Part shown: one piece after another, positions 44-5,402 of the stretch
How positions within the stretch are numbered: position 1 is the first letter of the stretch
How the letters are laid out: each line of letters begins with the position of its first letter
IMG/VR virus record: IMGVR_UViG_2657245461_000008
Origin: a virus
Lineage: Duplodnaviria; Heunggongvirae; Uroviricota; Caudoviricetes
Strand: one strand, 5' to 3'
DNA length: 5,580 bases
The notes under the pieces: model-generated
Told to the model about the DNA's origin: nothing
Seen by the model: the letters and a program-made list of their open reading frames with translations, nothing else
Databases searched by the model: none
Position numbers and translations under genes: made by a program

Positions 44-697
44 TTGGCAGCATTACCTGACCCGTTATCTAAAACAGAATTCAATGCATTAATGGAAAGT
101 GAAAAAGGACAGAGCCAAAACTTGTGGAAATTTGCCGTTTACTCCGGGCTTCGTCACGGGGAACTGGCAGCTCTGGCGTGGGAGGATGTGGATTTCGAGA
201 AGGGAATTGTGAATGTCAGAAGAAACCTGACGATACTTGATATGTTCGGTCCCCCAAAAACAAATGCCGGGATCCGGACGGTAGCATTACTGCAGCCGGC
301 TCTTGAAGCACTGAAGGAGCAATACAAACTGACCGGGCATCATCGCAAAAGCGAAATCACTTTTTATCATCGGGAGTACGGCAGAACTGAAAAACAAAAA
401 CTGCATTTTGTTTTCATGCCCAGGGTGTGTAACGAAAAACAGAAACCTTATTACTCGGTAAGCAGTTTGGGTACAAGATGGAATGCAGCAGTAAAACGTG
501 CTGGTATTCGCCGCCGTAATCCGTACCATACGCGACATACTTTTGCCTGCTGGCTGTTGACGGCAGGAGCGAACCCGGCATTTATAGCCAGCCAGATGGG
601 GCATGAAACTGCGCAAATGGTGTATGAAATTTACGGTATGTGGATTGATGACATGAACGACGAACAGATAGCCATGTTGAATGCGCGGTTATCGTAG
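44..697 (+). CDS. Phage-type tyrosine recombinase/integrase, C-terminal catalytic domain only (N-terminally truncated remnant, probably nonfunctional)
   Basis: 217-codon ORF starting at TTG 44 with no convincing SD. Translation has the tyrosine-recombinase catalytic motifs: Arg in YSGLRHGEL, His-x-x-Arg in NPYHTRHTFACW, then GHETAQMVYEIY with the presumed nucleophile Tyr. Stops in all three forward frames within nt 1-43 (TAA 13-15, TAA 32-34 in the int frame, TAA 39-41), so the N-terminal arm/core-binding domains cannot be contiguous upstream. Confidence 0.75.
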   Translation: MAALPDPLSKTEFNALMESEKGQSQNLWKFAVYSGLRHGELAALAWEDVDFEKGIVNVRRNLTILDMFGPPKTNAGIRTVALLQPALEALKEQYKLTGHHRKSEITFYHREYGRTEKQKLHFVFMPRVCNEKQKPYYSVSSLGTRWNAAVKRAGIRRRNPYHTRHTFACWLLTAGANPAFIASQMGHETAQMVYEIYGMWIDDMNDEQIAMLNARLS

Positions 698-705
698 TTG
701 CAAAG

Positions 706-728
706 TTTGCCCCCAATTTGCCCCATTT
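706..728 (+). repeat. Tandem TTTGCCCC motif pair (TTTGCCCCC aa TTTGCCCCATTT)
   Basis: Read directly: TTTGCCCCC at 706-714 and TTTGCCCCATTT at 717-728, immediately 3' of the integrase stop (697). The 12-mer recurs exactly at 903-914. Confidence 0.55.
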
Positions 729-900
729 AGTACCAGAGAACTGAAATAATGCAAGAAAATCAACAAATTACAAAGAAAGAACAATACAACCTGAACAAGT
801 AAGGGCAAAAATCACAACTATCTGACTCATAAGTATTTTATTTATTTTTCAATATGTTAAACATTATCAGCGACAACAATAAGCTACGATAACCCACTCT

Positions 901-920
901 TTTTTGCCCCATTTTTGCCA
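901..920 (+). repeat. Second TTTGCC(CC) motif pair (TTTGCCCCATTT followed by TTGCCA)
   Basis: Read directly: TTTGCCCCATTT at 903-914, identical to 717-728, followed by a degenerate copy TTTTTGCCA at 912-920. Confidence 0.55.
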
Positions 921-1033
921 TCAACAATTTTCCTCATAAAGTCATTTCAAAGCCTAATAGCTGCTCTACTTTTTTCCTCAATATCATGTCGCCAGCAGGA
1001 AACAACCTAATCCCTGTTTTAGGCCTCAAAGCT

Positions 1034-1052
1034 GTTAATGATAATTATTTTC
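1034..1052 (+). promoter_or_regulatory. Fur box (iron-responsive repressor operator) upstream of sitA
   Basis: GTTAATGATAATTATTTTC matches the 19-bp Fur consensus GATAATGATAATCATTATC at 16 of 19 positions by hand alignment. It lies 77-95 nt upstream of the sitA ATG and overlaps a candidate -35. Confidence 0.6.
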
Positions 1053-2870: not shown

Positions 2871-3724
2871 ACGTGCTACTGGAACCCTTCAGCTATGAAT
2901 ATATGCTCAATGCGATGTGGGTCTCGGCAATGGTCGGCGGTCTCTGCGCTTTCCTGTCATGCTATCTGATGCTAAAAGGCTGGTCGCTGATTGGCGATGC
3001 GCTGTCGCACTCTATTGTCCCGGGTGTTGCGGGGGCATATATGCTGGGGCTTCCGTTTTCTCTGGGAGCCTTCTTTTCCGGCGGACTGGCAGCGGGCAGC
3101 ATGCTGTTTCTTAACCAACGCACCCGCTTAAAAGAAGATGCCATCATCGGCCTGATCTTCTCGTCCTTTTTTGGCCTGGGGCTGTTTATGGTGTCATTGA
3201 ACCCGACATCCGTGAACATTCAGACCATCGTCCTGGGCAATATTCTGGCAATCGATCCGGCGGATATCCTGCAACTCACTATCATTGGCATTCTCTCGAT
3301 CATCGTGCTTTTTTTCAAATGGAAAGATCTTATGGTGACCTTTTTCGACGAGAATCACGCCCGTGCTATTGGATTACATCCGGGCAGATTAAAAATCCTC
3401 TTCTTCACCCTGCTGTCGGTTTCGACCGTTGCGGCGCTGCAAACGGTTGGTGCCTTTCTGGTGATCTGTCTGGTGGTGACTCCCGGTGCAACAGCATGGT
3501 TGTTAACCGATCGTTTTCCCCGCCTGCTCATAATTGCTGTAACTATTGGCAGTGTAACCAGTTTCCTCGGCGCGTGGGTCAGTTACTTTCTGGACGGCGC
3601 GACAGGTGGAATCATCGTGGTGGCGCAGACACTGCTGTTTCTTTTAGCATTTGTATTTGCGCCCACCCATGGACTTTTGGCAAATCGTCGGCGTGCGCAT
3701 AAAGCGCTGGAGGATCGCTCATGA
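2867..3724 (+). CDS. sitC: ABC transporter permease of Mn2+/Fe2+ importer (SitC/YfeC, ABC-3 family)
   Basis: 285-aa strongly hydrophobic ORF with multiple predicted membrane-spanning segments. ATGA overlap with the sitB stop (2867-2870); SD GAGGGA upstream. Clear paralog of the next ORF (conserved [14 protein letters not shown]... against LKGWALMGDAMSHA...). Confidence 0.92.
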
Positions 3725-4578
3725 TGGCATTATTACTGGAGCCACTGCAGTTCACCTTTATGAGTCACGCACTGCTGATTTCACTGGTAGTTTCCATACC
3801 CTGTGCGCTGCTGTCGGTCTTTCTGGTCCTGAAAGGTTGGGCACTGATGGGTGACGCGATGAGTCATGCGGTTTTTCCTGGCATCGTGCTTACCTGGATT
3901 CTGGGGTTACCTCTGGCTACAGGGGCATTCGTCGCCGGAGTATTCTGCGCGGTGGCGACGGGATACCTGAAAGACAACAGCCGAATCAAGCAAGATACAG
4001 TTATGGGGATTGTTTTTTCTGGCATGTTTGCCGCAGGTCTGATCTTGTATATTGCAATTAAACCAGACGTACATCTTGACCATATTCTTTTCGGCGACAT
4101 GCTCGGGATAACCATCGGCGACATAATCCAGACGGTGATTATTGCCGGGCTGGTTACACTTGTTATTAGCGTAAAATGGCGGGATTTTTTGCTGTTCAGC
4201 TTTGATTATCAACAGGCGCAGGTAAGCGGTTTGCATACGAGATGGCTGCATTATGGGCTGCTGTGCATGGTTTCCCTGACCATTGTGGCGACGCTGAAAG
4301 CAGTAGGTATCATTCTCTCTATTTCTCTGCTCATTGCGCCTGGCGCCATTGCAGTACTCCTGACACAACGCTTTCATATTGCGCTCCTACTGGCGACTGG
4401 CATATCGGTAATAGTGTCAATGACTGGTGTCTGGCTGTCCTTTTTTATCGACAGCGCACCAGCTCCGACGATTGTCGTCTTATTCGCGGTCGTGTTCATC
4501 ATGACGTTTACCGTTACCAGCATCAACGCACGCACAAAGGGAAACGCCCATACACAGGATCTGTTATCACCCAATTAG
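3721..4578 (+). CDS. sitD: ABC transporter permease of Mn2+/Fe2+ importer (SitD/YfeD, ABC-3 family)
   Basis: 285-aa hydrophobic ORF paralogous to SitC. ATGA overlap with the sitC stop (3721-3724). Ends TAG 4576-4578. Confidence 0.92.
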   Translation: MMALLLEPLQFTFMSHALLISLVVSIPCALLSVFLVLKGWALMGDAMSHAVFPGIVLTWILGLPLATGAFVAGVFCAVATGYLKDNSRIKQDTVMGIVFSGMFAAGLILYIAIKPDVHLDHILFGDMLGITIGDIIQTVIIAGLVTLVISVKWRDFLLFSFDYQQAQVSGLHTRWLHYGLLCMVSLTIVATLKAVGIILSISLLIAPGAIAVLLTQRFHIALLLATGISVIVSMTGVWLSFFIDSAPAPTIVVLFAVVFIMTFTVTSINARTKGNAHTQDLLSPN

Positions 4579-4741
4579 CACAACATCCGAGGACAGCATC
4601 GTCCGCCAGCCTACAGAAGTCCGGAAAGCCATGGAAGGTCGTTGGGAGGAGGTACGAATTCTATCATGCAAAAAATACGTAAAATCGATAACGCCTAGAA
4701 ATCATTCAATACTCGCACTATCGAAAGTTTACCAGCCAACC

Positions 4742-4770
4742 GCGGCACGTTCCTGCATACGACGTGCCGC
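4742..4770 (+). terminator. Putative intrinsic terminator hairpin between convergent sitD and the minus-strand gene
   Basis: Perfect 9-bp stem GCGGCACGT (4742-4750) / ACGTGCCGC (4762-4770) with an 11-nt loop. On the + strand it is followed by a moderately T-rich tract (AGCTTCTGTTATT). On the minus strand it begins 8 nt after the stop of the 4779-5402 gene but has no U-tract. Confidence 0.45.
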
Positions 4771-4778
4771 AGCTTCTG

Positions 4779-5402
4779 TTATTCCACGATAAAATTCCTA
4801 ACCGAATTCAAATCCTTCAGACTATTCAGCTCTTCCTTCAGCTCCCGCTGACGGCGATAAATCTCATCGTTGCGATCGACCTGCGCCTGCACCATTGCTG
4901 CCGCCAGTTCTTCCAGTTCCGGCATCGACAGTTTCACCTGCTGATTATCGGCATCGCTCCACGCCATATGTGTTTGTGCTGTGACAGATTTTGCCAGCAT
5001 GACTACCGGGGACAGGCGGCCCAGTGAGTCGGGACCAGCATTCCAGATACGACCGTTCCATTCAAACGTGAACAGCTTCGCCTCCTGTTCTGCGCGCCAT
5101 GCTTCAATTTCCTGACGTCTGGCCTCTCTGGCCGCTTCCAGCATTTCTGGTGTCACAGTGAATGGGGCTATCTCACCCCATTTGCCGCTTTGCAGTTCCT
5201 GCCAGATTTGCTGACCCGTCGGAGCGACATCATCAGCGGTGGCTGTGTAGGGGACTGCCTGGTCCCTGTCGTCAAAAAAAACGTCACAGTCTACTGCGCC
5301 ACTTTCGGTATAACGGGGATTAATGATTTTTTTAATTTCCACGGTGCATTCCTCACGATGTGCGAATAAAAAGCCCGGGCATTGCGCCAGAGACATGAGC
5401 AT
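4779..5402 (-). CDS. Prophage-associated hypothetical protein, possibly tail fiber assembly-like (DUF4376-type); function not verified
   Basis: 207-codon minus-strand ORF convergent with sitD. Charged, acidic C-terminal half (…ELEELAAAMVQAQVDRNDEIYRRQRELKEEL…). Family assignment is from memory of the W…G…W / C-terminal helical pattern, not a search. The maximal ORF starts at ATG 5402 with only a weak GGGGTG SD, whereas GTG at 5342 has a strong SD (GAGGAA at 5354-5349, 6-nt spacer), so the true product may be 187 aa (4779-5342). Confidence 0.55.
   Translation of the reverse strand: MLMSLAQCPGFLFAHREECTVEIKKIINPRYTESGAVDCDVFFDDRDQAVPYTATADDVAPTGQQIWQELQSGKWGEIAPFTVTPEMLEAAREARRQEIEAWRAEQEAKLFTFEWNGRIWNAGPDSLGRLSPVVMLAKSVTAQTHMAWSDADNQQVKLSMPELEELAAAMVQAQVDRNDEIYRRQRELKEELNSLKDLNSVRNFIVE

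Follow-up and report, generated by a model that had tools for sequence, protein, structure and literature searches.

How do an integrase gene, a phage attachment site, a metal-transport operon and convergent tail genes come to stand within about 5.5 kb of one another, when int and tail genes should lie at opposite ends of an integrated prophage? The question is raised by a stretch of 5,580 nucleotides (the window, meaning the whole stretch of DNA that was analysed) from the IMG/VR virus record IMGVR_UViG_2657245461_000008, assigned to Caudoviricetes, in which sitABCD is flanked by an integrase remnant and a tail-type gene. A sequence-only reading had previously suggested either a rearranged or deleted prophage remnant, or an element whose attachment (att) site is intact. 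Comparative analysis identifies the window as the core of the known sit island of Shigella flexneri, in which sitABCD is carried as cargo on a decayed Rac-like prophage.

The window and its intact relative

The comparison set comprised 18 S. flexneri chromosomal loci matching window bases 1-5520, most of which are 99.9-100% identical to the window over this range; small differences were detected in five of the 18, and two had a deletion in the region of the DUF4376 and fibre genes. Exact copies of the open reading frame (ORF) that fuses the insertion sequence (IS) element IS1 to int, and of the 207-aa protein encoded at the other end, are present in closed S. flexneri chromosomes of ~4.6 Mb (e.g., CP001383, strain 2002017). 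A free phage or plasmid was rejected as the source, because identical DNA sits in these closed chromosomes. Recurrence of the same arrangement across S. flexneri loci implies that it is not due to chance. The layout was derived from six-frame ORFs and profile searches against Pfam and PHROG, and every part of the order described earlier (int, AT-rich spacer, sitABCD, hairpin, convergent tail-type gene) was recovered, with corrections to the start of int, the type of phage and the tail family:

1-57, minus strand: terminal 57 bp of IS1 (inverted repeat and leader), 100% identical to IS1 ends adjoining annotated transposase genes (L002 21540-21596)
58-697, plus strand: intR', codons 200-411 and stop of intR, a pseudogene (Pfam Phage_integrase and DNA identity to intR)
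698-919, no strand: complete phage attachment site (attP) region of a ttcA-integrating Rac-type phage, its arms matching attL/attR junctions (P arm 698-772; 26-bp core 773-798, AAGAAAGAACAATACAACCTGAACAA; P' arm 799 to ~919)
749-802, plus strand: phage-borne ttcA stub read from the sequence, ATG and 16 codons (MQENQQITKKEQYNLNK) and a stop
920-1128, plus strand: sit promoter/regulatory region, by pattern matching
1129-2043, plus strand: sitA, periplasmic metal-binding protein (Pfam ZnuA, E = 8.9e-86)
2043-2870, plus strand: sitB, ATP-binding cassette (ABC) ATPase (Pfam ABC_tran, E = 9.1e-31)
2867-3724, plus strand: sitC, permease (Pfam ABC-3, E = 3.8e-83)
3721-4578, plus strand: sitD, permease (Pfam ABC-3, E = 9.7e-76)
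4742-4770, no strand: hairpin between the convergent sitD and DUF4376 genes (10-bp stem 4742-4751/4761-4770, 9-nt loop)
4779-5402, minus strand: DUF4376 protein, 207 aa (Pfam DUF4376, E = 1.6e-15, residues 90-194; PHROG 1141 'tail fiber protein', E = 1.2e-87)
5353-5520, minus strand: 3' end of a tail-fibre gene, full-length copies of which encode 422 aa with a phage_tail_N domain (L013, L015)
5521-5580, no strand: part of the interior of an IS66-family tnpA, interrupting the tail-fibre gene and identical (100%) to tnpA of IS66-like elements

A conventional form of the same phage was found in the enteroinvasive Escherichia coli strain CFSAN029787 (L015, 4671300-4721200), where a 48.4-kb prophage lies between uspF and ttcA. 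It begins with uspF, attR, sitABCD, the DUF4376 gene, the fibre gene, tfa, a baseplate-type tail module, head genes, lysis genes and four tRNAs, and ends with Q/nin, replication, immunity, Rha, recE, gam, xisR, intR, attL and ttcA. The end that carries int matches the window at 99.6% identity, and the end that carries sit at 99.7%. Sit and int occupy opposite ends of this prophage, 48 kb apart, which agrees with the expectation that int and tail genes are separated in the integrated state. The S. flexneri locus is colinear with the circularised form of the CFSAN029787 prophage, L015 42118-49102 being followed directly by 727-7467 with IS elements interspersed, and mapping to L015 revealed that it lacks the whole stretch from the baseplate genes through the lysis genes. 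On sequence grounds, the window is a deleted, circularly permuted and IS-eroded remnant of the phage that forms the CFSAN029787 prophage. The earlier comparison with the vegetative layout of lambda was sound as to the order, since the int-side and sit-side arms are joined at the 26-bp core, but not as to the phage, which is Rac-like, integrates at ttcA and has a baseplate-type tail. In the CFSAN029787 prophage this tail (contractile-tail-like rather than lambda-type) is combined with Rac-like early genes, IntR/XisR and the four tRNA genes.

The search for further phage genes around the window, which had been proposed as a check, showed phage and IS DNA throughout the 10-15 kb that flank the S. 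flexneri locus on either side. A group of Rac-like early genes (Rha, kilR, ydaE, recE, gam, an AAA_24 ATPase gene and xis) adjoins IS1 directly on its left; to the right of the window lie the fibre gene, tfa and IS elements, joined in some strains by Q/nin genes, and in one strain the Q/nin region comes right after the deleted stretch.

The spacer between intR' and sitA (698-1128, 431 bp) has 33% G+C compared to 47-52% in the flanking genes, which confirms its description as AT-rich, and its first half holds the attP region. Junctions between intR and ttcA match window 58-798, and junctions between uspF and sitA match it from 756. When the window was aligned with attL-type sequences, attR-type sequences and phage Rac-SA53, its left part followed attL and its right part attR, with the switch at AAGAAAGAACAATACAACCTGAACAA. 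The five-way alignment and a core scan found P arm, core and P' arm contiguous, as in a Rac-type attP, and the 26-bp core coincides with the attP feature annotated for phage Rac-SA53 (KU052037). At the sequence level attP is thus unsplit and intact, with the int-side arm, core and sit-side arm joined, and the suggestion of an element with an intact att site was correct to that extent. Within the P' arm, the T/C-rich stretch TTTTTTGCCCCATTTTTGCC (902-919) shows small indel variation in S. flexneri (L018, L020, L022 and L025) and in E. coli relatives. The core falls within the ttcA stub of 17 codons, and annotated ttcA at attL loci begins at the equivalent ATG; in a lysogen, the stub would provide a new 5' end for ttcA. 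Liu et al. described a change of the TtcA N-terminus upon integration and excision of Rac (PMC4632033).

The integrase gene beside this site is broken. The ORF at 44-697 contains the catalytic domain of Phage_integrase (Pfam PF00589, E = 3.8e-24, profile positions 6-165 of 172) and matches the PHROG integrase family (E = 1.8e-47), and bases 58-697 are 98-99.6% identical in DNA to intR of ttcA-integrating Rac-type prophages. The integrase start previously placed at base 44 has to be withdrawn, as bases 1-57 are the end of IS1: the TTG at 44 and the first five codons of the ORF are IS1 sequence, and integrase DNA begins at base 58. The IS1 transposase gene lies to the left of the window on the minus strand (an IS1 DDE transposase gene stands directly left in L013), in agreement with the structure of IS1, whose terminal inverted repeat adjoins insA/insB. 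Mapping to L015 showed that 422 bp of intR (codons 58-199) are gone beside IS1, and that xis and intR codons 1-57 survive on its far side. Only the catalytic domain is left of the full-length 411-aa IntR with its N-terminal arm-binding and core-binding domains, and intR' is a dead pseudogene fragment. Without the arm- and core-binding parts of its integrase, attP would be an orphan site and the block would be fixed in place. IS1 with the 422-bp deletion that kills int, and the absence of the tail, head and lysis genes beyond the fibre genes, bear out the proposal of a rearranged or deleted prophage remnant.

Route into the chromosome

A contiguous P-core-P' sequence arises only from Int-mediated excision, from a genome that never integrated, or from the internal junction of a tandem lysogen. 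The unsplit attP argues that the phage genome did not enter the present site by means of its own integrase. No ttcA, uspF or ompN was found within 10 kb of the S. flexneri locus, and S. flexneri 301, 2457T, 8401 and 2002017 have been reported to lack a rac-like prophage in ttcA and to have the ancestral TtcA N-terminus (PMC4632033). It is very probable that the sit island is an IS-eroded, circularly ordered remnant of a Rac-like temperate phage with sit as cargo, which entered the chromosome by a route other than attP. The remnant retains the circular (vegetative) order of xis, int broken by IS1, unsplit attP and sitABCD, then the fibre-chaperone and fibre genes in convergent orientation. What reached the chromosome may have been a phage genome in circular form, which had either been excised or had never integrated at ttcA; homologous or IS-mediated recombination may have brought it in, and most of it may then have been lost through deletions caused by IS1 and other IS elements. 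SitABCD, with a predicted metal-regulated promoter of its own (Fur/MntR type boxes), would serve the host in Mn2+/Fe2+ uptake whether the phage is alive or not.

An origin from tandem Rac-like prophages at ttcA would yield exactly the local order int-attP-cargo: the block would be the internal junction recreated between two copies, most of both having later been deleted. A resembling arrangement exists on the uspF side of the ttcA site in E. coli H22 and six similar genomes, where uspF, a diverged sitD-like pseudogene, phage scraps, an int fragment (from window 466), attP and sitABCD succeed one another as if two prophages lay end to end. However, uspF, ompN and ttcA are all lacking within 10 kb of the S. 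flexneri locus, and ttcA is reported as unoccupied and ancestral in this species, strain 2002017 included; in addition, aspS and yecN are given as island insertion sites in a review table, and no attR-type core was found beside uspF in H22. A tandem origin is therefore considered unlikely. The pseudogene of H22 (L003 10085-10600), a frameshifted permease gene 67-69% identical to sitD and located directly beside uspF, may be what is left of an older and diverged prophage that carried sit at this site.

The S. flexneri region is dense in IS1, IS2/IS3-family and IS600-like copies, and the int fragment might have come from a different neighbouring element and have been placed beside sitABCD by accident of IS shuffling; a second, unrelated integrase gene does occur about 6 kb past the right end of the window. 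Nevertheless, the int side and the sit side join exactly at the 26-bp core with both arms intact, both sides have 99.6-99.7% identity to the ends of a single CFSAN029787 prophage, and the continuity of int 3' end, attP and sit recurs in pAPEC-O2-ColV and seven E. coli chromosomes. This explanation deserves hardly any credence, and the sequence-only reading, which would have been undermined had the integrase belonged to an unrelated neighbour, is upheld here: a single prophage of CFSAN029787 has int at one end and sit at the other.

The second integrase gene (L017 1993-3597, ~6.3 kb past the right end of the window) encodes 534 aa with DUF6538 and Phage_integrase domains, and an ORF6N-domain gene also lies beyond the fibre genes among IS copies; their presence implies that more than one mobile element has contributed to the S. 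flexneri region. The IS-rich DNA to the left of the window is interrupted in one S. flexneri strain by a gene for a group II intron reverse transcriptase (RVT_1, GIIM; L023 17065-18588). Two IS1 copies in the same orientation, ~8.5-9 kb apart (L013 9247-10014 and 18487-19239), bracket int', attP, sitABCD and the fibre genes. Recombination between these two copies would delete sit, which may be linked to the reported instability of the island.

Several observations weigh against entry of a circular Rac-like genome carrying sit as cargo, or limit its reach. The outer junctions between remnant and chromosome lie beyond the flanks examined (10-15 kb, still phage and IS DNA), which leaves the entry route to be inferred, and the empty ttcA of S. 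flexneri is taken from the literature only (PMC4632033). Bases 5521-5580 agree with none of the 18 S. flexneri loci, which diverge from the window at 5520. Finally, the G+C content of sit (50%) is not distinct from that of the neighbouring phage genes (int, 47%; fibre-chaperone gene, 52%), and composition lends no support to a foreign origin of the operon. Distinct base composition is common in morons but is not obligatory.

The sit operon as phage cargo

The four genes at 1129-4578 follow the order expected of a SitABCD importer, i.e., a binding protein of the TroA/ZnuA fold family, an ATPase and two ABC-3 permeases, and near-identical genes (99% DNA identity) are named SitA-D in RefSeq. By analogy, the product is classed as an Mn2+/Fe2+ ABC importer, the metals being assigned from published work on other Sit systems; transport of Mn2+/Fe2+ by the Sit proteins of Salmonella, Shigella and avian pathogenic E. 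coli (APEC) is attributed to earlier studies cited in PMC4746246.

Pattern matching in the region upstream of sitA detected a Fur-box-like site at 1034-1052 (16 of 19 consensus positions) and a perfect palindrome, AAACATAGC-N4-GCTATGTTT, at 1075-1096, the latter also picked up in a terminator/promoter-type scan. We take this palindrome to be of the MntR-box type, from established knowledge of sit and mntH promoters. Both Fur and MntR operators of a sit promoter are thus matched by predicted sites, and a Fur box has also been reported upstream of phage-borne sit (PMC6969025). In a consensus scan, promoter-like sites in the window were no more frequent than in shuffled sequence.

The comparison of sit-positive and sit-negative strains, proposed earlier as a check, was provided by E. 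coli Jnd12. This sit-less relative has a full intR, the same attP and a backbone homologous to window 56-919 and 4736-4766; the 3.8 kb of window 920-4735 correspond to 69 bp in this strain, after which come convergent tail genes. Sit is thus present or absent in close relatives at the same backbone position, as expected of a moron. Moreover, the operon recurs, with 98% identity over 932/938-4598, in lambdoid phages, of which more than 40 deposited examples (phage 21 is one) have it. There it is flanked by the side-tail-fibre genes and attP-int and has the same orientation as in the window; only 932/938-4598 is shared between these phages and the window. In the work of Mathieu et al., 70% of the lambda phages from infant guts carried sitABCD, which was counted as a moron (PMC6969025). 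These findings agree with the earlier view of sitABCD as a moron in a slot equivalent to the b region of lambda, the same slot being used in the lambdoid phages, and the operon (1129-4578) is phage cargo between attP and the fibre genes. A literature search yielded no phage 21 genome paper that mentions sitABCD.

The sharply defined ends of the shared segment (~932-4598), and its occurrence in many unrelated phage backbones and plasmids, could also suggest that sitABCD is a small transposon-like mobile cassette that inserted beside attP on its own, and the arrangement of phage 21, in which the cassette has a copy of window 4625-4751 on its opposite side, might be read in the same way. Around the operon, however, no direct or inverted repeats were found apart from short chance matches, and no recombinase gene lies within the cassette; the empty-site comparison reveals a 69-bp replacement rather than a clean insertion with target duplication, and the plasmid copies are bounded by IS1 rather than by the cassette ends. 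A transposon-like cassette is very unlikely and was rejected on the outcome of the repeat search. The phage 21 copy (L001 8875-9000, upstream of sitA) is 82% identical to window 4625-4751, which is the backbone stretch just downstream of sitD up to the start of the hairpin stem; its location on the other side indicates that the cassette flanks are permuted between backbones.

The convergent fibre module and the right edge

The hairpin between sitD and the DUF4376 gene folds with -18.5 kcal/mol (z = -2.44) and was not flagged by a consensus terminator scan. It has no clean T-run in the window, whereas the same hairpin is followed by a T-run in Jnd12. Its presence in this sit-less strain implies that it is part of the phage backbone and not of the sit cassette. 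With regard to the promoter and terminator of its own that a moron may have, host-type regulatory boxes are present at the sit operon, and the downstream hairpin belongs to the backbone.

The gene at 4779-5402 had been tentatively labelled as a tail-assembly gene. The profile search proposed for its product returned the phage-family matches listed above, DUF4376 and PHROG 1141, placing it in a tail-fibre module, and the label was fair as to function; it does not extend to the Tfa family, as no Caudo_TAP (PF02413) match was found at E<=0.01, and a separate Caudo_TAP gene lies two genes upstream in both S. flexneri and CFSAN029787. The DUF4376 gene is located directly downstream of the fibre gene, overlapping its 3' end by 50 nt, and in the intact CFSAN029787 prophage it closes the baseplate/fibre module. 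In domain and gene position it agrees with the DUF4376 class of fibre chaperones (V22 gp27 type, CJIE1 type). For other proteins of this family encoded just after the fibre gene, experiments have shown that fibre function depends on them (PMC7289586, PMC7882524), and the product of 4779-5402 is, by analogy, probably a tail-fibre chaperone. A sequence search of solved structures with this protein gave matches at chance level only (E>0.05).

At the right edge, the tail-fibre gene breaks off at 5520, where it meets DNA from inside tnpA and not an IS end. Matches to the source of this piece were found on large plasmids of the same E. coli strains that hold the closest chromosomal matches to the window. 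In a scan of reference genomes, the 5520/5521 junction was found only in S. flexneri SFBU1023 and E. coli ECMA0423, where it adjoins a 98% copy of the DUF4376 gene and sit is not adjacent. The mismatch at this edge does not affect 44-5402.

Wider occurrence and comparison with known systems

A contiguous block of int 3' end, attP and sit is rare in E. coli, being present in seven of 5426 genomes, all of which are cut at window 466. In the plasmid pAPEC-O2-ColV (NC_007675; L028 3001-3144), sitA is preceded by the terminal 43 bp of intR and by a Rac-type attP that is perfect in both arms and the core, and other ColV-type plasmids have IS1 at ~window 914. The truncation point of int accordingly varies, from base 58 in S. 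flexneri to 466 in the seven E. coli chromosomes and 655 in pAPEC-O2-ColV. The signature in pAPEC-O2-ColV points to a circular Rac-like phage genome as the putative source of the plasmid sit copy. More tentatively, the block of int 3' end, unsplit attP and sitABCD might be a fossil left by one capture, or a small number of captures, of a circular Rac-like genome in the unintegrated state, from which the sit loci of Shigella, some E. coli and ColV plasmids were derived, although we regard this as doubtful. If it is true, S. flexneri would have an orphan attP and (according to the literature) an empty bacterial attachment site (attB) on one chromosome; were a Rac-like phage to enter and supply IntR, the DNA between the two sites could be inverted or deleted.

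Both the S. flexneri sit island and sitABCD as a lambdoid moron have already been published, and the novelty of the present results is low. The unsplit Rac-type attP in the island and the intact progenitor prophage in enteroinvasive E. coli were not found stated in the literature examined, which excludes the primary description (Fisher et al. 2009). The locus offers a clean example of a virulence-associated metal transporter that, placed in the cargo slot of a temperate phage, outlives the phage, with an intact progenitor identifiable in enteroinvasive E. coli; in addition, the ColV plasmid signature links plasmid-borne sit to a Rac-type phage. These results refine the known history of the sit island and open no new question, and have little import beyond bookkeeping.

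Among known systems, the closest is the S. flexneri sit island itself ('PAI sit', Fisher et al. 2009, as summarised in PMC7545054), which is the same locus, with sitABCD amid phage genes and IS elements; that summary describes it as unstable, found at varying chromosomal sites and shaped by homologous recombination. The window shows no difference in kind from the island so described. Rac and Rac-SA53 (IntR-XisR, ttcA site) resemble the window and its locus in the integrase (97-99.6% DNA identity), in the 26-bp core within the first ttcA codons, in the phage-borne 5' end of ttcA and in the early-left genes kilR, ydaE, racC and recE. The Rac prophage of K-12 has no sit, is integrated with its att site split into attL and attR, and has other tail genes, whereas in the window int is broken, attP is whole and sitABCD is present as cargo.

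The lambdoid sit morons (phage 21, Lambda_ev phages, Perceval and others) share with the window the same operon (98% over 938-4598), slot, orientation and upstream Fur box, but have other integrases and att sites (icd in phage 21), and their flanks outside 932/938-4598 are unrelated to it. The sit region of ColV/ColBM plasmids (e.g., pAPEC-O2-ColV) is 97-98.4% identical over the operon, and differs in that it is plasmid-borne, lacks tail genes (homology stops at 4585-4606) and is usually bound by IS1 at ~window 914.

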